64,000 nucleotides of DNA, taken from a virus (taxonomy: Duplodnaviria; Heunggongvirae; Uroviricota; Caudoviricetes). Each line of letters starts with the position of its first letter. The first letter of the stretch is position 1. The notes below the pieces were generated by a model. That model had not been told where the DNA came from and did not search any database. It saw only the letters and a list, made by a program, of their open reading frames with translations. The stretch is taken from positions 139,710 to 203,709 of the IMG/VR virus record IMGVR_UViG_3300037455_000372; one strand, given 5' to 3'. Positions 9,407 through 60,800 of the stretch are shown piece after piece. A program made the position numbers and the translations under genes.

Positions 9407-10780
9407 TTAAATCTCGCCGACATCAAAATCGGCCATATTCATCACGTCGCGAATAGCGTCATCAATGGTGTCGGCATCACCCATAATCGAACCGTTGCCT
9501 CGCGTTAGCTGAGTCATTACACCAGTCTCACGCTGCACAAGTACGTCACCCTTGAAATTCTCCGGGTCAGCGGAGTCTCGGCTCAACACGGCAAAGAAAC
9601 CGAACTGCTGCAAGGTCTTGTAGTAATCGGTCTTCGATTCTGGAATACCCCATTCTGCAGTCTTATCCCAGTCCACAGCAAGCTCAGGAGCTGGCTGGTC
9701 AATAATCTGGTTGACCTGTTCGGAAATATCTTGCGGAATCCACGACAAGTCAATAAGCGTACGGTTACGGATATACTGGCCACTCCAACCGTTAGCCTTC
9801 GCGACCTCAAAAATGTTCGGGCAATTTTCAAGAAGCTGTACGGCAGCTCCTTCGGAAATCAAGGTTTCCTTGGTCGGCTTGTACGCGCCGGTCTTCGGAT
9901 CGACGAAAGCCATTCCACGGATATTATCCGAAGTATCGCCAGAAAGTACCTTTGCGGCAAGATACTGCTGCGGATAGGCGCAACGGACAAAGTTACCGCT
10001 GGTGTGGTTGAAAATCTTAACACCCGGAATGTCAATCTGCGACATATCGGAGTCGCGTGTGATGATAATGACATCGTCATAGTCCGGAGCGTACTTCTTC
10101 GCGGACGCATAAATCATATCGTCACCTTCAGCGACTTCACATCGGACGGCCTTCGCTCGGAAGAACGGAGCAATCTGCATCGCATACTGATCCTTGTACT
10201 CTTGCCAGTATTTCTTGTCGACGGAGAAGTCCCAAGCGGACGCGGCTCGCTTTCCCTTGTAAGAAGGAAGAATCGGAGTACCAGTCGTCGTCTTAATGCT
10301 CCATAGCATATCGCGCTTGTCTTCGGGCATATCGCAAAGCTGGCGATGCTTCAACGATTCGTAAATTGCCTTCTGTTTCAGAGGAATCTTGACAACGTCG
10401 TACTGGTCGTCGCCAATCTTATCCACCTTGAAGGTATAATTGTCGCTGCTCACGTAGTAACTGTTCGCATCGTAATAAATCGTCGCTTCCTTGTTGTAGT
10501 AGTCGCGAACGAAATTTCGACGCCACGCCTTCTTGCCTTCCAAGCAGAGAATGATGTCCATCGGATTGAAAAGCTTGATGTAGTCAAGCATACGGTTGAA
10601 CATCTTGGTACGCCAGATAATCATCTCCTCGTCTTCCGGGAGAATGCTTCCTAGAGTCTGCTTGCTGGACTTGGTTCGCATAGACCACAGCTGGTGATAC
10701 GACAGTGAAGCCCAGTCGATAACTAACAAGCGATTGTTCTTGAACGGATAGCTCCGTATAGGTTGTTCCTTAAAATCCAT
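9407..10780 (-). CDS. rnh: RNase H / 5'-3' flap exonuclease (T4 rnh-like)
   Basis: LLVIDW, YKGKR, EGDDMI, TRDSDM, LSGDTSDNIRG, RNRTLIDL motifs of the FEN/T4 RNase H family. Confidence 0.92.
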   Translation of the reverse strand: MDFKEQPIRSYPFKNNRLLVIDWASLSYHQLWSMRTKSSKQTLGSILPEDEEMIIWRTKMFNRMLDYIKLFNPMDIILCLEGKKAWRRNFVRDYYNKEATIYYDANSYYVSSDNYTFKVDKIGDDQYDVVKIPLKQKAIYESLKHRQLCDMPEDKRDMLWSIKTTTGTPILPSYKGKRAASAWDFSVDKKYWQEYKDQYAMQIAPFFRAKAVRCEVAEGDDMIYASAKKYAPDYDDVIIITRDSDMSQIDIPGVKIFNHTSGNFVRCAYPQQYLAAKVLSGDTSDNIRGMAFVDPKTGAYKPTKETLISEGAAVQLLENCPNIFEVAKANGWSGQYIRNRTLIDLSWIPQDISEQVNQIIDQPAPELAVDWDKTAEWGIPESKTDYYKTLQQFGFFAVLSRDSADPENFKGDVLVQRETGVMTQLTRGNGSIMGDADTIDDAIRDVMNMADFDVGEI

Positions 10781-10789
10781 AATTCAGCC

Positions 10790-12574
10790 TCACAGGAAGA
10801 ATTTCTTCTTGAACGGAGTTCCAGTCTTGTTGACCTTGCTCTCGTTTTTCTTTCGCGCCTTCTCGGCAGCCTTGCGCTTACGCTCGGCAATCATCTCTTC
10901 ATCGACAGTAGCCTCGTAGATACCGTCCAGACGAATCTCGTTCACCGGAATATCGTCCTTCGCATAGTAAGTCTTACGAGTCTCGTAATGCTGCATCATA
11001 TAGTTGTACTTGAGTCGAGGCGGACCGCCACGACGAGGAGTCGTGAAGTACGACGCGTCGTCGACCAAGTCATAGACATAGGCCATCTTCTTGTCCTTGT
11101 GCGGACGAACGATACGACCAATCGACTGCATCACCATATACACCGACTTAGCCGGGTCAGCCATAACCAAATTGTGCAGCAACTTGATGTTCACGCCTTG
11201 CTTCATACACCCATATGTTGCAAGAATCATATGCCCAGTCGAATACTCGATGGACTTACGAATCGTCTCACGCTCGTCCACGTTCACGTCACCCTTGATG
11301 ATGTGGCAAGTGAACTGGGGGAAATTCTTCTCGATGAACTCGTGCATAAGTTCCAAGTTCTCGATAGCCTTGAACAAGATGACCGTATTCTGCTCGGTCG
11401 TAATCTTTCCAGAATCTATCAAGAGCTTCAAGACATCACGTCGTGAACTTGTACTGGAACAGAAAGCTCGCTCGTCGTCAAACGTCGAATATCCAATCGA
11501 ACGTCGTAACGCTTGAGGATACGGAATAAAAATCGTGTTAACCGTAACCGGCGTCAAGATTCCCTTCTCGACCAGCTCCTTCAAACGAACGATTTCTTCC
11601 TTTCGACCAAGCTGACTCTCGATGTAGCCAGCATCGATACCGTCGTCAGGCAACGTACCAGACACGCCGACCTTGAAATCGACGGCGTTTACGCACTTCA
11701 TCAAGATATCTCGTAACTTGATACCACGAGTCGAGTGAGCCTCGTCAACGATGACTGCGGTGAACGCCTCGAAAAACTTCGCTGGCTTGTTCTGGAGTGA
11801 CTGCCAAGTCGAAATGGTAATCGGCTTGAGCGTGGCCTCCTCGCCTATATTGGCCGCAGCAAGACGTTCCTTCTGCGCCTTCGTCAGCTTGTCGTCGGAA
11901 TCAGCATAGATCAATGTGCAATACTTTCGCGCATCTTCCCAGCCATAGTCGTCGTGGAAATCGGAGAACAACTGTTCCACCAAGTTCGTAGACGGAACGA
12001 CAATCAAAATCTTCTTGCGCTCGCGCTCCAGCAGATATCGTGCCATAATGCACATCGATAGTGACTTGCCAGCACTCGTACAGGCGAGCAATGAAATTCG
12101 GCGACCGTTCAAGGCGCGTTCCACAAGCTTCACCTGATGTTCGTACGGCTTAATCTCGAAGCCTTCCTTCAAGTTGTGGAGCTTCAATGTCGCTGCATAA
12201 GCGGCAACGTCGTCACGAGTCAATGCACCCCTAGGCGGAGTGTAGATGTCGCGAATTGCCTTCGACAAACCGATCTTGGTTCCGAAACGGTTCTTGAGCA
12301 ACGCGCTCACACGCGGAATCAACCCGATGGGCAACAGATGGGTCGCCTTGTTGTAGAAGTAAACGAACGGTGTCTTGAAACCTTCACGTACCGCCCAAGT
12401 GTTGGCGACGGCCTTATCGTAGAAGGTCATACTTCCAAAAATGAAATTGTTTAGCTTGTTACCGGCAGTCTGGTCAGACGCCGAAATTTTGATAACGGAA
12501 AACACGTCGTCAGCCTTGTCAAAGACTACGGACGTAGACGGTTCCGCTTGTTTTACCTCGACCTCTTCCGCCAT
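10790..12574 (-). CDS. uvsW: UvsW-like superfamily 2 helicase
   Basis: PYEHQ Q-motif, TSAGKS, DEAH, SGT, QSIGRIVR, VYDLVDD. Confidence 0.93.
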   Translation of the reverse strand: MAEEVEVKQAEPSTSVVFDKADDVFSVIKISASDQTAGNKLNNFIFGSMTFYDKAVANTWAVREGFKTPFVYFYNKATHLLPIGLIPRVSALLKNRFGTKIGLSKAIRDIYTPPRGALTRDDVAAYAATLKLHNLKEGFEIKPYEHQVKLVERALNGRRISLLACTSAGKSLSMCIMARYLLERERKKILIVVPSTNLVEQLFSDFHDDYGWEDARKYCTLIYADSDDKLTKAQKERLAAANIGEEATLKPITISTWQSLQNKPAKFFEAFTAVIVDEAHSTRGIKLRDILMKCVNAVDFKVGVSGTLPDDGIDAGYIESQLGRKEEIVRLKELVEKGILTPVTVNTIFIPYPQALRRSIGYSTFDDERAFCSSTSSRRDVLKLLIDSGKITTEQNTVILFKAIENLELMHEFIEKNFPQFTCHIIKGDVNVDERETIRKSIEYSTGHMILATYGCMKQGVNIKLLHNLVMADPAKSVYMVMQSIGRIVRPHKDKKMAYVYDLVDDASYFTTPRRGGPPRLKYNYMMQHYETRKTYYAKDDIPVNEIRLDGIYEATVDEEMIAERKRKAAEKARKKNESKVNKTGTPFKKKFFL

Positions 12575-13133: not shown

Positions 13134-13220
13134 TCCTTGTTCCAGTTTCGATTAAGTCGAATATAGCCAATAACAGTTTGAAACTCAAATTACTCCATTC
13201 CACCTAAAAACACCCTAAAA

Positions 13221-13254
13221 CATGAAACATATATTTGGTTCACCCGTAGGCTGG
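13221..13254 (+). repeat. direct repeat copy 1 (CATGAAACATATATTTGGT-N4-CCGTAGGCTGG)
   Basis: 30 of 34 positions identical to 14043-14076. Confidence 0.9.
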
Positions 13255-13280
13255 CTTCGAAATTTTCTACATTTGGAGGT

Positions 13281-13964
13281 ATGGAACAGAAATTTCTGGA
13301 AATTCAGAACAGACTCCGTGGCCAAGTCGTCCAGACCGACCAGTTCAAGACTGACGAGATCAGTCTGGTCGCCGGAGTGGACTTGGCCTACTGGAACGGC
13401 GAGGACGGCGAGTACGCGGTCTGCGTAATTGCGGTCATCGACTTCCACACGCACAAGATGGTCGAGTTCCAGTCGACCTTCGACCGTGTCGAAATTCCGT
13501 ATATGCCGGGGTTCCTCGCCTTCCGCGAACTCCCGCTCTTCGAGAAAACCGTCAAAAAACTTACGAAAAAGCCAGATTTGTTCATTTTTGACGGAAACGG
13601 CGTGCTCCATCCGCGCCAGATGGGCATCGCCACACACGCGTCGTTCAGTCTGGACGTTCCGACCATCGGCGTCGCGAAGACGTTCTACAGAGTCTCCGAC
13701 GACGCGTCGTATACCGAACCGGGCAACACCAGAGGCGACTTCACGGACATCGTACACGACGGCGTGGTGCTCGGCAGAGCAGTACGTAGCCGTCCGAACG
13801 TGAAGCCGATCTTCGTCTCGGTCGGGAACAGAATCTCTCTGGAGACCGCGACCCAGCTCGTTATGACGCTTGTCGACAAGGACAGCCGCATCCCGGTCCC
13901 GACTAGACTCGCTGACATACTGACGCACCAGCGTCGCACCAGTCTCAAGTCCGGGTTGGACTAG
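13281..13964 (+). CDS. nfi: endonuclease V (deoxyinosine 3' endonuclease)
   Basis: VAGVD, PYMPGFLAFRE, FDGNGVLHPRQMGIA, IGVAK, P-P-R-AD motifs; GGAGG RBS. Confidence 0.96.
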   Translation: MEQKFLEIQNRLRGQVVQTDQFKTDEISLVAGVDLAYWNGEDGEYAVCVIAVIDFHTHKMVEFQSTFDRVEIPYMPGFLAFRELPLFEKTVKKLTKKPDLFIFDGNGVLHPRQMGIATHASFSLDVPTIGVAKTFYRVSDDASYTEPGNTRGDFTDIVHDGVVLGRAVRSRPNVKPIFVSVGNRISLETATQLVMTLVDKDSRIPVPTRLADILTHQRRTSLKSGLD

Positions 13965-13995
13965 CACCTCAAGTCCGACCTCGGAACCGTTTCAA

Positions 13996-14020
13996 GCTCC
14001 CTCTCAGGGGAGCCTTTTTT
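13996..14020 (+). terminator. rho-independent terminator after nfi
   Basis: GCTCCC-tctcag-GGGAGC followed by a T run. Confidence 0.75.
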
Positions 14021-14042
14021 ATACCTTTTCAGCCCCTAGAAT

Positions 14043-14076
14043 CATGAAACATATATTTGGTACTTCCGTAGGCTGG
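14043..14076 (+). repeat. direct repeat copy 2
   Basis: CATGAAACATATATTTGGT-actt-CCGTAGGCTGG. Confidence 0.9.
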
Positions 14077-14214
14077 GTCGCGAGGGGTGGGAACTGTTTG
14101 GACTAGTTTGAACGGACAGACAAGGAATAAACTCTCGACCGAGGAATACGGATATGAGAAGGATTTACCATATATATGGAATAGAAAGGATCTCAACAAA
14201 ATTGGTGGAAAGAG

Positions 14215-14243
14215 TTGACAACCAAATATGCTTTTTGTAGCTT
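14215..14243 (+). promoter_or_regulatory. sigma70-type promoter
   Basis: TTGACA (14215-14220), 17-bp spacer, TAGCTT (14238-14243). Confidence 0.65.
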
Positions 14244-14254
14244 TGTCCACGAAA

Positions 14255-15844
14255 ATGAGACCGCGTCAATACAAAATCTTGCTCCCTGAACCCGTCTTGA
14301 ACGACTTGAAGGTTCTGATAACGGACTACTACCGCCAGTTCGGTGACTCCAAGAGGTCACGTACTTTCGTGGATAGTGCCGCGTTTTTCCTTTCAATCCT
14401 TACGAATTCCTTGGTTTCCGACCACAGAAAGAACGAGGTTACCTCCCTTGACCACCGTGTCCCCAAGGAACACTGGTGTACCCATCTCTATTCCCCCATC
14501 CTCCGTGATATCTTCGGAAACGACTATCTGCTGGTAGTCGGCTACTTGGCTGAGAAAGGCTTCGTTGGCCGTTCGAACCATTACGAGATTGGGAACGGAA
14601 ACTGCCGTGGCCGCAGCAAGGCTTATTGGTTCACGGCCAAGTATGGCACCTATCTCGCGAAGTATCTGAACTCTCGTTCGGCTCGCCGTTTTTCCAACGA
14701 GTCCGTGAAAGTTTTTGGTAAGTTCCGTTCCTACACGATTAAGTCCAAGACCGTCCTCGACCGCTGGTTCGCCGTCTTGGAGAAGCGCAAGGAAGACTCG
14801 TTCTTGGATCCGATTGTCGATACGTGCTACAAGAACTTGGAGCATTTCTCGATTGATACGAAGGCCGCCGATGCGACGTTCGAAAAGCTTCGTGCTGAAG
14901 GCAAGATGACCAACTACAAGGAAAAGCTGGAGAGAGCCAAGATTCAGCGTTTCAACGACGTTGGTACGGAGCCGTACGCTATGTACGTCAAGCACGACCG
15001 TTATGGCCGAATCCATACGAACGTGACGTGTATGAAGAAGGAACTCCGTGCATCCGCATTGCGTTGCGACGGCAAGGAAGTTGGCGAAGTCGATATCAAG
15101 TCGAGCCAGATTGCCTTCATCGTGCCGGTGTTCAAGCGTTACTTGGAAGTCTTTGCCGAAGAAGATTCCGAGCCGTCCGGAGATACTTTCATCCAGTTCA
15201 GGCCGTTCTGGCGCGAAGGCCAGCGTGAATACACGATGGAAAAGATGTCCGGCGAATTGAACGTGTTTTCCGGATTGGTTAATTCACACCAGATTTACGA
15301 GTATTTCGCCAAGGAACTGAGCGAAGACTTTGATTTGGACAAGACTGTGACTCGTGACGAGGCTAAGAGCGGATTGGTGTCGTTCTTGTTCTCTCCGCGT
15401 TATTTCGACGAGGAACGCGAACCGGTACGTGCCGCAGTGAAGCGCGTATGGGAAGACAAGTTCCCGACGCTTCTGCGTTGCTTGTACTCGATGAAGCAGA
15501 ACTGTCACGCTGCATTGGCATACGAGCTGCAGAAGGTGGAGAGCAACTTCATCTTCAATCGAGTATGTCCTCGTATAACCAACGAGCTGGGCTGTCCGTT
15601 CTGCACCGTTCACGATTCTGTTATCGTTCCGAAGGAATTCTGCGGACGCTTGAAGAAGATTATGGATGCCGAGCTTGCGAAGCTTGGTATTCCGACAATC
15701 ACGGAAGTCGAATATTACGATATGGTCGAGGCTTCTATGCCTTGCTTGCTCGACGAGGGTTTCTTCGCCGAAATGACCCGTCGTGGTATCAAGACGGTCG
15801 ATACCGCTGACTTAATCGATGAAAATGTCGCCATAGACGAATAA
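14255..15844 (+). CDS. family A DNA polymerase / T7 RNA polymerase-fold protein with an N-terminal winged-HTH-like region and no exonuclease domain
   Basis: DRYGRIHT (DxxGR), motif A EVDIKSSQ, motif B TRDEAKSGLVSFLF, LQKVES, motif C TVHDSVIV; alternative start at 14228. Confidence 0.75.
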   Translation: MRPRQYKILLPEPVLNDLKVLITDYYRQFGDSKRSRTFVDSAAFFLSILTNSLVSDHRKNEVTSLDHRVPKEHWCTHLYSPILRDIFGNDYLLVVGYLAEKGFVGRSNHYEIGNGNCRGRSKAYWFTAKYGTYLAKYLNSRSARRFSNESVKVFGKFRSYTIKSKTVLDRWFAVLEKRKEDSFLDPIVDTCYKNLEHFSIDTKAADATFEKLRAEGKMTNYKEKLERAKIQRFNDVGTEPYAMYVKHDRYGRIHTNVTCMKKELRASALRCDGKEVGEVDIKSSQIAFIVPVFKRYLEVFAEEDSEPSGDTFIQFRPFWREGQREYTMEKMSGELNVFSGLVNSHQIYEYFAKELSEDFDLDKTVTRDEAKSGLVSFLFSPRYFDEEREPVRAAVKRVWEDKFPTLLRCLYSMKQNCHAALAYELQKVESNFIFNRVCPRITNELGCPFCTVHDSVIVPKEFCGRLKKIMDAELAKLGIPTITEVEYYDMVEASMPCLLDEGFFAEMTRRGIKTVDTADLIDENVAIDE

Positions 15845-15884: not shown

Positions 15885-16370
15885 ATGGCTACATATATTC
15901 GTGATATTGTTTTTGAAAAGGAACCTAAGATCGGTCGACAGCCCGGAGCACCGGGATATGTTCTTGACGAGGATATGGTTGTGGATATCAAGCTGGTCTA
16001 TCAAACGGAAATGACGGACGGCGGCGAGGATTTCATCGATAACGACGAGCATCGTATAATTGTAAGCCGAGGCTTGACAATGAAGTCACATCCGTTCCCG
16101 GCTTGGTTACGCGCCTTCTTGCCGTGTTGCGGAGTAGAGCTGTCGCTCGGTATGTCTATGCTGCTCACGGCCTTGTATGAAGAAGGCGGACTGGATGCGT
16201 ACACTCGTGACCAGATCGACCGTATGTACATCAACTATACTCTCAAAAAAGTAAAGAACCCATTGAAACGTGGGTTCTTGGATGCGTTGATGGGACTGTT
16301 CATCGGGTCTGACCTTGGCTGGAAATGGAATTCCGAAGAGACCAAGGTCGCGAGGATTGAACCTATTTAG
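15885..16370 (+). CDS. hypothetical protein, weakly DUF1353-like
   Basis: VSRGLTMKSHPFPAWLRAFLP...LY...TRDQIDRMY follows the DUF1353 pattern but lacks its HD residues. Confidence 0.55.
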   Translation: MATYIRDIVFEKEPKIGRQPGAPGYVLDEDMVVDIKLVYQTEMTDGGEDFIDNDEHRIIVSRGLTMKSHPFPAWLRAFLPCCGVELSLGMSMLLTALYEEGGLDAYTRDQIDRMYINYTLKKVKNPLKRGFLDALMGLFIGSDLGWKWNSEETKVARIEPI

Positions 16371-17428
16371 ACTGGGAGACGCAACGGAGAATCCTTTAGG
16401 TCTTCGTTGTCTTCGTCTTCGTAATCCGGTTCAGTTTCATCTTCGACTGGCTGGTTGAACATATCCAATTCAGATTCTTCGGCGAGGTCGGCAAGGTTGT
16501 TCGGCTTCGCTTCTTGTTTTTCCGGAGTTCCGCCGATGATGCCGTCGATTGGGTTTTCGACGGTTTCTTCGCCTTGTTCGGTTTCCTCGGCGTTGGGATT
16601 CGTGCCGATAACGCCCAGACCCGGATTTTCCTTGGCTTCGTCTGACATCTCGTCGGATAGCTTGTCCATCGCTTCGGTAGTTTCCTCGGTCTTGAAACCG
16701 GGTACGTTATCGAAGAACTGCTTGGCCTCTTCTTCGGCTTTCTGTTCTTCCGGTTCCTCTTGCTTGCCGAGAGGCATCTTGACAGGTTTCTCTGGCTCTT
16801 CCTTCTTTTCTGGGACGTAGTTGCGTGCGTCCTTCATAATGGAAGTGGCATTGGTCAAGATACCGCTGCACGCGGCTACCAAGTGCTTGCACATAGTAGT
16901 CTTGTGTTCCGGGTCTCTCACGGAAGGATTGATGTCCTCGCCGTGGTCGTCTCGGTCGTCTGCTGCGTGCTGGCCAGCCAAGAAGCTGTCGTTGACGTGC
17001 TTGGCATTGTACTTCATACCAGACCAGTTGAAGTCTGGGCAAGTGCAGAAGAACTTAATGTCGGCATCCTTCAAGATCTGCATACGCTCGCTCAGTTTCG
17101 CCTTGGCCTTGGCCAAGTTGAACAAGGTGGTATCTTTCGGTATGATGTCGATGAAGCAGTAGTAGAACTTGTAGTCAGCCGGGTTGGCGTTCTTGTTCTT
17201 GGAAGACGGAATCTTGAAGATAACAACGGTGTTTCCGTCGTTGTCAGCGGTTACGCCTTGGTAATAGTGTTCAAGCTGCTTGCCGCTCGCGTAGCGGTCT
17301 ACGTGGCGGCGGTTCTTTTTCTTGAACATAGCCTCGGTGTCCTTTACCCTCTTGATAAAGTCCGCCGTATTGGCTTCGAGCTGCGCCTTCCCTACGGAAA
17401 GCTGTGTCAAGAACAAGGATTTATCCAT
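16367..17428 (-). CDS. SWIM-type zinc-finger protein with an acidic C-terminal tail
   Basis: FFCTCPDF...MCKHLVAA (CxC...CxH). Confidence 0.75.
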   Translation of the reverse strand: MDKSLFLTQLSVGKAQLEANTADFIKRVKDTEAMFKKKNRRHVDRYASGKQLEHYYQGVTADNDGNTVVIFKIPSSKNKNANPADYKFYYCFIDIIPKDTTLFNLAKAKAKLSERMQILKDADIKFFCTCPDFNWSGMKYNAKHVNDSFLAGQHAADDRDDHGEDINPSVRDPEHKTTMCKHLVAACSGILTNATSIMKDARNYVPEKKEEPEKPVKMPLGKQEEPEEQKAEEEAKQFFDNVPGFKTEETTEAMDKLSDEMSDEAKENPGLGVIGTNPNAEETEQGEETVENPIDGIIGGTPEKQEAKPNNLADLAEESELDMFNQPVEDETEPDYEDEDNEDLKDSPLRLPV

Positions 17429-51178: not shown

Positions 51179-54142
51179 ATGCCCGTAGTAAACGAAGAAC
51201 AGAAAACCCCAGTGAGACCGATGTACCGCTCGGTCTACCACGATACCGAAAACGACCGTATGTACGTATGGTACGTTGATGGTACTTTTGACGCTGTACC
51301 CGTCAAGCACGAATTTTATACTACAATTAAGGGTCAGTACAATGCCGTCGAATGCGGAATGAAGAACATCTGGGACCAAGATGTCTACAAGATTGAAATC
51401 AAGAAGCGCGAAGGATTGTCGGCCTACGAATTTGAAAAGCGCATCCGCCAAGACCATAGCGGACCGAACAACAACCTCGCGGAAATCGATATCGACCCGC
51501 GATGCCGTTTCCTACAAGACCATTATAAAGACGCTGGTATGATGTCTCCGAAGATGGAGGACATCAATCTGTGCTTTATGGATATTGAAAACGCCACCAC
51601 CGGACGATTCTCCGCGCCGGTCGAGGCGTTGTACCCAATCAACGTAGTTACCCTATCGTTCTCGAAAGGTAAGAAGCGTTATACATTCGGCTTGCAGCGC
51701 GATATCGACGAAAAGTCGAAAGAGTTTTTACGATCCAAGAATTGCGAATATGTTTTGTGCAGTAGCGAAGCTGACCTTATTTCGAAGGTGATGTATTGCA
51801 TCGGTTCTAACGATGTGGACATCCTCTCCGGTTGGAACTTCGGGTACGATACCGTGTATATGGCCACTCGTATCAAGAAGCTTAACGAAGGTCTTCCTCG
51901 CGCACAGCAGTTGTCCCTAGACTTGATGTCCAGAATGCGTGGACATAACAAGCACGCCTATTTGAACAAGGAGAATGAACTTGTCATCAACGGTACGGAA
52001 GTTATCGACTTCCTTGCCTTGTACAAGAAATATACGTTCTCCGAAGAATCTTCTTATAAGTTGGACTATATTGGTGGAAAGGTCGTCGGCCAGCACAAGG
52101 CTCCGCTTCCTGACGGCTACCAGTCTTGGATTAACCACTGGTCTGACTATGTAGTGTATAACTTTATCGACGTGGAACTTCTGGAACTCATTAACGAGAA
52201 GACCCAGATGTTCAAGCTGGCCGTTACCTCGGCTGCAGCCGCTCGTGTTCCTGTTTCGTTCGTGTTTGAGTCCAAGAAGATGCTGACTGGCTTCGTGCTG
52301 GATCACTTGCATCATACTGGACGCGTGTTCCCTCCGTACAAGACCCAGACCAAGGAAGAGTTCCCCGGTGCTTTCGTTTACTCAGTTCCGGGCTACAAGG
52401 AATACTTGGTTTCGTATGACTACCGTTCACTATATCCGTCGATTATGATGACTTTCAATACCTCTCCGGAGATGAAGGTCACGTTCCCGATCGATTATGT
52501 GCTGACGGAGGAAGAACGCAAGAATCTTATCAAGTCTCCTTGGGACCACAATGGACGCTACCAAGTCTACTTCCGCAAGGACAAGATTGGCGTCGTGCCG
52601 GAAGTTACTCGTCTGTTGTTCGACGGTCGTTCCAACTTGAAAAAGCAGATGAAGAAGGCCAAGAAGGCTGGCGATATGGAAAGCGCGTCGGTCTTCGATA
52701 TGATGCAGAAGGTTTACAAGGTTTTGGGTAACTCTCTGTACGGTCTTCTCGGTTCCAACTACTTCGCTCTGTATGACGTGGACAACGCCGCTTCGATTAC
52801 GGCTTATGGCCAGCGTCTTATTAAGTTCACCATTGAGTGTCTGGCTGAATACATCAACAATGATATCAGTACGGATGACCGCTTCTACAACGTGTTCGGC
52901 TATCGTCCGGAAATCGACCCCGAACTGGTCGGAACGTTCGAAGACCAGAAGACTGGTGAAATTAACTACAAGCGAATGAGCCACGGTGATACGGACTCCT
53001 TCTTCGTCAAGTTCGGCGACATCTACGAACCGTTCAGACAGAAGCAGGGGACTGGTACTTCGGTTCTGGTCTTCAAGGGTCACGAGCTTGTCGAGCACGA
53101 GAAGTTCGATAACGACCACGAAATGGATTCCAAGAAGTTCTTCAACCAGATGTGCCTCAAGTACGATAAGGACGGCTGGACATCTAAGGAAATGCGTACT
53201 CCGGATGAACATACTGGCTTCACCAAATGCCAGATTACGTTTGCCGACGGTATCTATTTCTGTGGCGATCATAGAGTTATTTATAACCGCTACCGCTTGA
53301 CAGACTTCTGCCGTATTCTTGACGCTTGCATTCTTGAAGAGGAACTTGACAAGTATATGCTTGCTTACGCCAACAAGTGGAACTACCTCACCAACGAGTT
53401 GTTCCTCAAGCGCGAGAAGTGCATATACAAGGCCATCGTTACGGCGAAGAAAAAGTACATCTGCTTGGTCGAGTCGATGGAAGATATCGTCTACCTTGAC
53501 AAGGGACACAAGGAAAACGGCAAGTGGATTCAAGGCGACTTGTCGGTCAAGCCCGAATACGCTATCACCGGTCTTGAACTCGTCCGTAGCTCTACCGCTA
53601 TGTTCGGTCGTGACCGTATGATGGAAATGGTGGACTTGATGATGGACGGCCTTGACCGTACTAAGGTTCGTAACCGCTTGCTGGAAATGAAGAAGGAATT
53701 CTTCAAGGCGGTCGCCGAGGATAACATCAACTACATCGCTTGTCCGAGCGGTGTCAAGACGGCTCCGCCTCCGTTCGAAGTCCTTGAAAAGATGACGACC
53801 GAGGAAAAGCTCGCGAACAAGTACGAATGGCGTTGCCAAGGCGCGTCCGTTTGGAACTACTTGATTCTGCACGACCCGGAACTGTCCAAGCACACCTACG
53901 AACCGGTTGCGGCTGGCTCCAAGATCCGTTTCATCAAGAAAGCCGACAAGCTGTTCGGTGTCTCCATCATCTGCTATACAGGTGAAGAATGTCCGCCGAG
54001 ACTGCTCGAAATCTTCCATCCGGACTGGGAAGAACACTGGAAGACAAGCGTTGCCCAGATTCTTGGAAGACTTTTTGAAGCTGTTGGCTGGGATGAACAG
54101 CTGGAATATGACGAAAGTGACTTTATGCTGGAGTATTTCTAA
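51179..54142 (+). CDS. gp43: family B DNA polymerase (T4 gp43-like)
   Basis: Exo I DIE, Exo II GWNFGYD, Exo III YNFIDV; polymerase motifs DYRSLYPS, KVLGNSLYG, GDTDS, KKKY, GLELVRSS. Confidence 0.97.
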   Translation: MPVVNEEQKTPVRPMYRSVYHDTENDRMYVWYVDGTFDAVPVKHEFYTTIKGQYNAVECGMKNIWDQDVYKIEIKKREGLSAYEFEKRIRQDHSGPNNNLAEIDIDPRCRFLQDHYKDAGMMSPKMEDINLCFMDIENATTGRFSAPVEALYPINVVTLSFSKGKKRYTFGLQRDIDEKSKEFLRSKNCEYVLCSSEADLISKVMYCIGSNDVDILSGWNFGYDTVYMATRIKKLNEGLPRAQQLSLDLMSRMRGHNKHAYLNKENELVINGTEVIDFLALYKKYTFSEESSYKLDYIGGKVVGQHKAPLPDGYQSWINHWSDYVVYNFIDVELLELINEKTQMFKLAVTSAAAARVPVSFVFESKKMLTGFVLDHLHHTGRVFPPYKTQTKEEFPGAFVYSVPGYKEYLVSYDYRSLYPSIMMTFNTSPEMKVTFPIDYVLTEEERKNLIKSPWDHNGRYQVYFRKDKIGVVPEVTRLLFDGRSNLKKQMKKAKKAGDMESASVFDMMQKVYKVLGNSLYGLLGSNYFALYDVDNAASITAYGQRLIKFTIECLAEYINNDISTDDRFYNVFGYRPEIDPELVGTFEDQKTGEINYKRMSHGDTDSFFVKFGDIYEPFRQKQGTGTSVLVFKGHELVEHEKFDNDHEMDSKKFFNQMCLKYDKDGWTSKEMRTPDEHTGFTKCQITFADGIYFCGDHRVIYNRYRLTDFCRILDACILEEELDKYMLAYANKWNYLTNELFLKREKCIYKAIVTAKKKYICLVESMEDIVYLDKGHKENGKWIQGDLSVKPEYAITGLELVRSSTAMFGRDRMMEMVDLMMDGLDRTKVRNRLLEMKKEFFKAVAEDNINYIACPSGVKTAPPPFEVLEKMTTEEKLANKYEWRCQGASVWNYLILHDPELSKHTYEPVAAGSKIRFIKKADKLFGVSIICYTGEECPPRLLEIFHPDWEEHWKTSVAQILGRLFEAVGWDEQLEYDESDFMLEYF

Positions 54143-57823: not shown

Positions 57824-60800
57824 ATGGGAACTAAAATGGGTTTTCCGCCGGGTGTACGAATCCAGCTGCGCGATAATTCCGCCTACTCCGTAGTCGAGAA
57901 TCCAGCAACTACCGCTGGTATCGTCGGTTTTGCTTCTAAGGGTGAATTGAACAAAATCATCCAAGTGAACACGACCGCCGAACAGGACGCAAAGCTGGGT
58001 TATGGCTACCAGAGCTATAAGTACAACCAAGGAATGTATGCTGCTCGTGCCGTGCTTGACGCCGGTGGCGTTGTCGAATTTGTCCGTCCGTATGGCGAAG
58101 AAATCGACCGTACCGACCCGCGTAAGCGTGATTTGAAGACTGATGCCTTTGTGGTTGCGTTCGACAAGAATGCTGGCCAGTATAAATGCGAGGCCGAGCA
58201 GACTTCTTTCCAGATTGAACACTTTGCCGCTACCCGTTTCAAGACTGACGGTGCAGCCGCTTATGGTGTGACTCGTAAGATTAACAACATCGCTGAAGCG
58301 GTGACTACCGGTAAGAACGTGGACTTCGGTCTTACGGCTTCCGAAGACTATGCCGATAGCAACAAGGCTCGTAAGTGGGATGGTGAACACTGCACTGATA
58401 TGGTGCTCTTTGCCATTATGAACCGCGACCCCAGCTATGCCTACCGCGCATTCGACCGTTTCGAAATTGTTGGCCAGCCGGACTACGGCACTGACAGAAC
58501 GTCGGTCGTTGTGACCTTGTCTACGGTGCCGACTTTCACGATTGGCGACACCGTGTTGCTCCCTGCTTCTGGATCCAAGAACAATAACAAGGACACCCTT
58601 GCTACTGTTACTGACATTGAAGACAAGAAGGTGACCCTCGAAATTCCGGAAGAATACACGACCAGTGGTGCGCAGTATTTCAATGCCATCATCTTCTCGA
58701 ATCCGGATTCCGCTGTCGAAGACGGTTTCGACTATATGAACATCAAGACCGCTGTGGCTGGTCAGGGTGTGAAGAAGTTTGCCGCTGCCAAGTGGGGTTA
58801 TGACAAAACCAAGACTCCGTCCGTCATTAAGCCGGGTGACCGTTTCACGTTCAAGAACAAGAATGGCAATAACATTGACATCCGTCTTTGGAAGTCTACT
58901 GAAATTGAACAATCTGGTTCGTTCGTGCTGACCGACGACAACTTGGAAATCCCGTGCTCTGGCTTGGAAGTTGTGGTTGGTGATACTATTGCTTTGAAGC
59001 TTACGATTAACGGAACCGTGACTTACTTCACTGACTTGTACGTGAAGGATATTTCGGCTAGTGGCAACGCTATTGTTGCAAAGCCGGATGGATACGCTGC
59101 CGGAACTGATGCAAAGGTTTCGATTACGGAATGTTCCGAAGCCGTTCTCTACGCTGATGTGAACGATGCTGACACTTGGGAAAAGGTTGCTACCGCTGTG
59201 GTGAAGGTACTGAACAGCTCCGCTCTTGGTTATGCCAAGTCTGGAATTGTCAACAACATCAACTCTGCTAAGGGAACTACGATTGTCGTTGACCCAAGCG
59301 CAGCGTTCGACTACTCGATTGGTGATAAGGTGGCTGTGGTTCGTGCAAGCAAGTCGGTAGACAATACCGCTAGTGACACTCGCGCTACGGATGACTTCTT
59401 CAATGGTGATTCCATTCTTTCGACGGTTCTTACTGTTACTGACATCAACACCTTCACTGGTGTGATTACGGTTAACGACGCTCTCACGATTGAAATCACT
59501 GATTCTACTGTCTATCAGTTGATCAACTTGAGTACAACTTCGGCGACTGCCTACAACGCGGTTTCTTCGGAAACTTACACCTATAAAGGTGAAGCTGTGA
59601 CGAAGGAAATCACGATTCCGACCAATGAAATTACTGGCACGGTTACGCTTACCGCAGCTGACTTGAATAAGTTCGTTGGTTTTACCACTGTTGATGCGGT
59701 GGTTGCTTCGGTAACGCGTACTGGCGACCCGGCAATTACGGCAGCCGACGTGACCGTTACTCGTAACGGAAACGACGTGGTTGTTACGATTCCGGAGTCG
59801 AAGAAGTCTACCACAAATGCAGCGACGGTTTCTGTTACGCTCACTCCGTCCGTTGTCCGTGTACGCGACACGGTTGACACCTACATTGTGTCTAGCTACA
59901 CGATGTACGTCAGCTCCGTCGAACAGAAGGAAAACGTGGTTGTGAACGACGACGTAGATACTCAAGCTTTTGTCAAGACTGACGTTAAGTGGAACCTCGA
60001 CATCGAGAAGTCCGCAAAGGTTCTTGCCGATAGCGATATCGGTGCTACGTTCCTCGGACTTGGCCTTGCCAAGACGAACTACCTCGACGTTGACTTCGAC
60101 AACAACCCGCGTCAGGTCTACGTGCTGACCGACGAAGGTGTGAACATCGCTCGTATGTACCTCTCTATCCGCTACCGCTTCAACGGCAAGATTTACGAGT
60201 TCGAAGGTACTATCGTTCCGTACAGCACCGCTACGAAGATTCAGCTCGGCATCAAGCAAGCTGCCGACTACGAACTGACCGACAGTGGTTTGGAATTCAT
60301 TCTGAACGACTCTGGTGTGCTTGACTACTTCCTTGAAAACACGTCTTACGACTTGTCTCAGTCGCTCGTCGGCGGTACCCTCAACGGTTCTGTCACTGCG
60401 ATTGCATACAACTCTAATGACCCTGCTATCAAGAACGACGCAGTCTGGACTTACAATCCGTTGAACAACCGTTCTGGCAGCACTCTCTCGACGGTATGGA
60501 ACCTCTTCCTCAACAAGGACGGTTCTGACGTTGATATGCTCGTCGCTGCTGGTATGGCAATCAACAATCCGTTTATGAACAAGATTGAGACCTTGAATAC
60601 TCAGGTCATTCAGGCTATGTTGAATGTCTGTGAAGCCCGTAAGGACTGCTTCGCTCTCTTCGACGGTGTGTCTGAACCGGATATCAACAAGGCTCTCAAG
60701 AAGGATATCGCGGCTACCGGTTTCATTTCGACTCTGGGACGCTGGGGTATGCTCTACGACGGTCGCGGTCTCGTCCAAGACTCCGTGTACACCAACGGCG

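Follow-up and report, generated by a model that had tools for sequence, protein, structure and literature searches.

A minimal superfamily A polymerase gene beside twin repeat boxes at the likely bidirectional replication origin of a huge phage: a candidate initiator-primase

The locus described here lies in a 64,000-nucleotide stretch of DNA (hereafter the window; G000:139,710-203,709) of the virus record IMGVR_UViG_3300037455_000372, which is 355,392 bp long, linear and estimated to be 93% complete. It comprises a gene on the plus strand for a minimal superfamily A polymerase with a winged-helix-like head (14255..15844, 529 amino acids from its likely start), two plus-strand copies of a 34-bp repeat, further referred to as origin boxes 1 and 2 (13221..13254 and 14043..14076), and the endonuclease V gene nfi located between the boxes (13281..13964, plus strand; PF04493, E 1.7e-66). 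On the minus strand, the genes of a UvsW helicase (10790..12574; T4 UvsW, E 9e-50), which shares the locus with the origin, and of a 5'-3' exonuclease (9407..10780; PF02739, E 3e-9; phrog_107, E 2e-24), which we take to be T4 RNase H-like, lie to the left. The labels of the sequencing runs containing the locus read bovine gut or gut metagenome; in two of the four other DNA runs it was found whole on a single contig and in the remaining two in pieces, and it is therefore no assembly artefact. Among the variant sites listed for the four DNA runs (40 of 81), none fell within 13938-14439.

Cumulative G minus C over the full record reached its minimum at window position 14,504, which is 276 bp from the polymerase open reading frame (ORF), on a flat floor of ~14,000-14,900 (inferred origin region 14000..14900, no strand assigned). 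Thus, the candidate origin, which a preliminary description of this DNA had proposed from the window alone, was borne out by the skew of the whole genome. The maximum of the detrended skew was at genome position 323,790; in a closed record the two arms would measure ~170 and ~186 kb. The contributions of replication and transcription were separated by fitting the third-codon-position skew of each gene with a coding-strand term, and the breakpoint of this strand-corrected model was at window position 13,224. Within 100 kb on each side, the third positions of plus-strand genes changed from -0.247 on the left (12 genes) to -0.046 on the right (56 genes), and those of minus-strand genes from +0.044 (63 genes) to +0.205 (24 genes). 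As the flip is seen in genes of both strands, it is not a product of gene direction, and the genome possesses a global skew minimum independent of coding strand, as expected of a bidirectional replication origin. The skew flip at 13.2-14.9 kb likely marks such an origin of the phage, and the presence of a replication origin at this locus appears to us highly probable. The preliminary description had the strand turn across the second repeat; the turn is real, but since total skew places it at 14.5 kb and the strand-corrected model at 13.2 kb, it is not assignable to that repeat, and the origin can be placed between ~13.2 and ~14.9 kb rather than on one box.

The likely start codon of the polymerase gene is the ATG at 14255, while the residue numbers given below follow the 538-residue frame from 14228. 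The motifs D257xxGR261, D289IKSSQ (motif A), R376xxxK380 (motif B) and H462DS (motif C) are all situated where the preliminary description had them. Residues D257, R261, D289, Q294 and K380 are invariant in 79 of 79 family sequences, D463 is present in 78 and the entire HDS in 75 (duplicates included); in the homologue at L016:9900-11500 HDS is replaced by HDE, the Pol I-type form of motif C. The position of the steric-gate Glu of Pol I (Glu710; PMC13369328) is occupied by Gln in all 79 sequences, according to the motif count. The thumb, the Arg hairpin, the palm with two Asp and the fingers with RxxxK, characteristic of superfamily A polymerases, were all recognized, and the top fold match was the mitochondrial RNA polymerase; T7 RNA polymerase aligned over residues 187-504 only. 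Polymerase matches start near residue 190, and residues 10-192 form a single domain in the model, whose matches are of the winged-helix type, winged-helix domains being matched at low Z in a search with the head itself. Hence the protein is predicted to fold as a superfamily A polymerase core without an exonuclease, preceded by a separate N-terminal head that in the model is probably a winged helix, in agreement with the lack of a proofreading domain and the helix-turn-helix-like N-terminus proposed earlier.

A T4-like replication set was revealed within the window by family and profile scans of its ORFs: PolB (51179-54139; PF00136, E 2e-30), a primase (42611), a DnaB-like helicase (38255), gp32 (41403), a RecA-like protein (36853) and an SMC-like ATPase (5075), PolB and the primase having been correctly recognized before. 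With separate genes for PolB, the primase, the DnaB-like helicase and gp32, there should be another task for a further polymerase. A search of 1.84 billion representatives with the profile of the family retrieved 4,389 clusters (E <=1e-10). One 583-residue relative (P0130) ends in an anti-repressor-like domain (phrog_63, E 2e-5), which suggests that copies occur in prophage-type elements, and a polymerase-core relative from a 19.6-kb Pinkberry virus (OP947160.1:2175-2717) is annotated as "DNA methyltransferase", which is probably a mis-annotation.

The two 34-bp copies, rightly reported in the preliminary description, are identical at 31 of 34 positions, and no third copy was found across the 355,392-bp genome at <=9 mismatches. 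In a matrix scan of the genome the boxes scored 28 and 26 bits and the next site 14 bits (the matrix includes both boxes). Alignment with three close relatives showed that the conserved unit, always present in two copies, is not the 34-mer but a 15-bp core (13224-13238 in box 1 and 14046-14060 in box 2) consisting of GAAAC, an A/T-rich run and GG; this layout may resemble a recognition-melt-start arrangement. The core pattern, built from these loci, was present upstream in duplicate in 11 of the 62 distinct loci, namely the ten closest and L019, and was exclusive to the origin in G000 and G003, with 2 matches in each genome. In five relatives the two copies within one genome share 21-26 nt, which suggests concerted change. 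A single box look-alike was present in all three regions examined of the L020-L036 clade, and none was found in the regions examined of a clade with proteins of ~400 residues. The G-rich tract following box 2 accompanies only 6 of 20 boxes. Upstream of one distant homologue, a 41-bp near-perfect direct repeat was noticed (L067:9380-9800).

The nfi gene lies between the boxes in L008 and L009 as well, is reduced to its last codons in L006 and is absent in L007 and L010-L014, where both boxes are kept at 99-181 bp from each other; judging from this sequence comparison, nfi is cargo. The tolerated spacing of 99 to 822 bp argues for boxes acting one by one.

The association of the polymerase gene with the origin was followed in its relatives, the family profile having yielded 79 loci in viral contigs and tblastn six records of uncultured phages of 595-735 kb. 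Skew was measured in nine other large genomes (coverage 60-100%, gaps interpolated). The distance from the gene to the minimum of total skew was 0.14 kb in G005, 0.7 in W03, 2.3 in G003, 3.2 in W01 and 3.3 in G001, and larger in W02 (15.7 kb), G004 and W05 (82 kb each) and W04 (239 kb); for these nine genomes Fisher p was ~1e-6 against covered bases, a value that overstates independence because of the relatedness of W04 to W05 and the common ancestry of the genomes. The strand-corrected breakpoint was 1.0 kb from the gene in G004, 1.4 in G003, 2.0 in W04, 3.2 in G005, 3.6 in G001 and 9.9 in W05, and this model missed the gene in W03 (39 kb), W01 (275 kb) and W02 (277 kb). Where the strand-corrected signal was strong (G000, G001, G003 and G005; fit gain 0.14-0.38, proteins 23-46% identical), the two measures agreed in all four genomes in placing the origin no more than 3.6 kb away from the gene. 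Every one of the 15 genomes searched had one polymerase locus (in G000, whose gene served as the query, another profile yielded no match). PolB was located in three of the strong genomes, each time at a distance of at least 38 kb from the gene. For distinct loci flanked by 8 kb both ways, a change of skew from negative (left) to positive (right) was seen in all 13 close loci and in 15 of the 26 distant ones, although such a V-shape is also obtainable from divergent genes alone, because the coding strand is G-rich in low-GC phages. In a low-GC clade (L038, L052, L073, L074, L077 and L083) the gene stands directly upstream of genes for proteins of ~1,290 and ~185 residues, presumably resembling tail sheath and tail tube; the same loci display a sharp skew flip at the gene and often contain HNH-like genes.

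The cultured phage ICP1 may provide a further case, its ORF100, a relative of the polymerase, occupying 58,951-60,618 in ICP1_2006_E and an early bidirectional replication peak having been reported "near the 60 kb position" (Barth et al., PMC7145576); this match may be off by several kb, since the strain had upstream deletions and the coordinates are unstated. The recurrence in relatives of the link between the gene and the skew minimum is supported.

Several other non-coding elements surround the boxes. A terminator-like hairpin, detected by consensus scan only, ends nfi just ahead of box 2 (13996..14013, plus strand). A leftward host-type promoter-like site (13160..13189, minus strand) would by inference serve the operon of UvsW and the exonuclease, and a similar sequence is present upstream of box 1 in L006, L007, L009 and L010-L013. 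ATAAACT at 14127..14133 (plus strand) is conserved here in all four aligned genomes and is not specific to the origin: it has 85 sites in the genome, 57 of them with a gene start <=150 bp downstream, and is likely a late promoter. It often stands ~32-35 nt before the gene start and is abundant in G001 and G003 also. A rightward promoter-like site, TTGAC...TAGCTTTG (14215..14245, plus strand), ends 9 nt before the ATG and is conserved in 4 of 4 aligned genomes; its second part, TAGCTTTG, fits the Bacteroidales -7 consensus TANNTTTGY (PMC8748976). The hexamers TTGACA (14215) and TAGCTT (14238), from which a promoter had been drawn before, are indeed present, but they fail a sigma-70 scan, and the site reads better in the form given here. 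The 12-bp palindrome at 14168..14179 (no strand) does exist, yet it is lineage-specific and probably incidental, as such perfect 12-mers number 68 in the genome (~0.055 expected per 290 bp, i.e., chance level), and the three close relatives aligned either lack it or have it in broken form. Likewise, the piece ACCAAATAT of the promoter spacer is present at 14221 and absent in all three. As neither element is conserved, a role of the palindrome and autoregulation through the spacer, both suggested in the preliminary description, are unsupported.

As for the remaining gene content, the polymerase gene is followed here and in the eight closest loci compared by a gene for a 161-residue protein (15885-16370), which had no Pfam or PHROG family match and by eye presumably resembles a degenerate DUF1353 protein. 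The next gene (16367-17428, 353 residues), with a SWIM-like CxC...CKH motif (Pfam E 0.82), is inside the locus in 8 of 13 close relatives. In the distal part of the record (G000:C1:338,000-355,392) dense repeated motifs (CTATACAAG, AAGGAGTTAA and G+C-rich inverted arms) precede many short genes and likely constitute an early-gene promoter array.

Our proposal is that the polymerase is an initiator-primase dedicated to the origin, which would bind the twin boxes via its predicted winged-helix head and lay the first primer in the manner of T7 RNA polymerase. It builds on the flip of the skew, on the fold and its invariant catalytic motifs, on twin boxes that are conserved and unique to the genome, and on the recurrent linkage of gene and origin; repeat binding and primer synthesis, as suggested in the preliminary description, would agree with these findings. 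Some functional tie between the protein and the origin is in our opinion fairly probable; for the proposal in its full form, the likeliest of the readings considered, we regard the chances as evenly balanced. The protein would be made from the host-type promoter at 14215-14245, recognize GAAAC of each box and open the A/T run. Synthesis would then start de novo near the conserved GG, giving a short rightward RNA, mixed primer or R-loop, by analogy with T7 RNA polymerase, which works at paired promoters in the primary origin of T7. PolB would extend the primer, and the DnaB-like helicase and primase would load on the displaced strand, setting the second fork; the neighbouring exonuclease and UvsW would process the hybrid and subsequently dispose of it, as happens in T4.

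Several observations weigh against this proposal. In the six genomes other than the four strong ones (fit gain <=0.07) the two skew measures disagree, and one or neither of them places the gene close. In 4 of 4 small cultured divPolA2 phages the gene is away from the global skew minimum, the profiles being W-shaped and weakly fitted. In the four strong genomes, UvsW, taken as a control, lies at a distance of 1.0-6.3 kb from the gene and hence travels with the origin too, so that priming by host RNA polymerase in T4 style stays a rival. According to it, host RNA polymerase would form an R-loop from the conserved promoter under the regulation of UvsW and the exonuclease, and the mini-polymerase would be a primer-dependent helper or repair enzyme kept by synteny. 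The conserved host-type promoter and the adjacent genes of UvsW and of the RNase H-like exonuclease, both inside the locus in 12 of 13 close relatives, fit such an origin also, as T4 oriF and oriG combine a promoter with an unwinding element near transcription-direction switches and are shut off by UvsW (PMC3016281); repair has been suggested for divPolA2 (Yutin et al., PMC11348598), and an endonuclease V gene is located in the same gap. However, UvsW is 86-129 kb from the gene in three megaphages (W01, W04 and W05) and was detected in a single one of the 15 distant V-shaped loci (tblastn may overlook distant copies), the gene is closer to the minimum than UvsW in G000, G005 and W03, and the genome-unique twin boxes and the predicted DNA-binding head are left unexplained. 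We consider this explanation rather unlikely, though the foremost of the alternatives.

It is improbable, in our estimate, that the protein only binds and opens the boxes and loads the helicase, with the phage primase making the primers and the polymerase site extending them briefly. Still less probable is a single-subunit RNA polymerase for gene expression, for which the boxes would be promoters of nfi and of the enzyme itself and the link with the origin would be incidental. The top match to mitochondrial RNA polymerase, the RNA polymerase role raised by Yutin et al. (PMC11348598) and the location of box 1 57 nt upstream of nfi speak in its favour, as do RNA-run contigs covering nfi and parts of the ORF, in which start and strand are not readable and DNA in the libraries is possible. 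On the other hand, there are no more than two boxes per genome, box 1 is without a gene of its own in relatives devoid of nfi, and the ORF possesses its own conserved host-type promoter.

Should the initiator-primase proposal be true, it would add an enzyme of the Pol I / T7 fold that primes in a sequence-specific way, together with an origin marker for megaphage genomes. Of huge-phage genomes, ~30% show skew patterns of bidirectional replication (PMC7162821). The enzyme class is already known, and its link with origins was not found in open-access print, where no paper was found that names a huge-phage initiator or ties divPolA2-like enzymes to origins. At this locus the protein has a name, the site comprises 15 bp and the position is defined, which turns the question into one for direct assay, and with 4,389 family clusters the answer could apply widely. 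In a wider generalization, to which we give somewhat less than an even chance, a widespread jumbo and megaphage lineage, with genomes up to 735 kb, would use a single bacterial-style origin at which one protein both reads the origin through its winged helix and makes the first primer with its family A core, needing neither DnaA nor host RNA polymerase, and this would be the real job of divPolA2-like enzymes, possibly including ICP1 ORF100.

Among known systems, the fold matches to viral proteins, including those of a barbavirus and an Aeromonas phage, lead to divPolA2, for which Yutin et al. (2024, PMC11348598) propose a role in repair or as an RNA polymerase, not an origin function. As in divPolA2, the enzyme is encoded beside a regular replicative polymerase (here PolB), lacks a 3'-5' exonuclease and has a separate N-terminal globular domain. 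The divPolA2 type protein AUR84708 and ICP1 ORF100 both belong to phrog_4756, to which the ORF itself, a remote relative by sequence, gave E 0.044 and 7 of 21 relatives E <=0.01 (best 4e-8); the broad profile retrieved ICP1 ORF100 at E 1.9e-10 among 377 frames and did not find AUR84708 at E <=1. Unlike the family considered here, AUR84708 is without HDS and differs in its motifs, while our family occurs as one locus in phages of 350-735 kb and is distinguished by the winged-helix-looking head, the skew minima and the twin boxes. It is therefore best read, on its sequences, as a sister family to divPolA2 (phrog_4756). With TV-Pol (Iyer, Abhiman and Aravind, 2008, PMC2579912) it shares a minimal family A core, never fused to a nuclease, and predicted priming, and the ability of a family A core to prime de novo is known from CcPol-MP (Rice, 2023, PMC10061031), a PolA-SSB primase whose priming depends on an adjacent OB-fold partner. 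In contrast to TV-Pol, its neighbours are nfi, UvsW, the exonuclease and unknowns, no D5 helicase, resolvase, integrase or transposase having been named among the window ORFs in general family scans, and in contrast to both TV-Pol and CcPol-MP it belongs to a large phage with a complete T4-like replisome. The locus resembles the T4 origins oriF and oriG in that the replisome is T4-like, a promoter stands close to where gene direction switches, and UvsW and the exonuclease are adjacent; however, T4 has at least five origins without a shared motif, whereas the present genome displays a single dominant skew origin, accompanied by conserved twin boxes and an additional polymerase. T7 RNA polymerase carries the DxxGR and HDS motif forms, and the DxxGR hairpin, HDS motif C and absence of the steric-gate Glu, typical of T7-like single-subunit RNA polymerases, were all found in the present enzyme. 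It is a general late RNA polymerase with many promoters and 832 residues in the matched chain, whereas the enzyme described here has 529 residues and two sites, and the replicase is PolB. At the primary origin of T7, this polymerase acts at the paired promoters 1.1A and 1.1B to start replication (PMC8373140), and at the locus studied a phage-coded enzyme of the family A fold would likewise act at paired sites.
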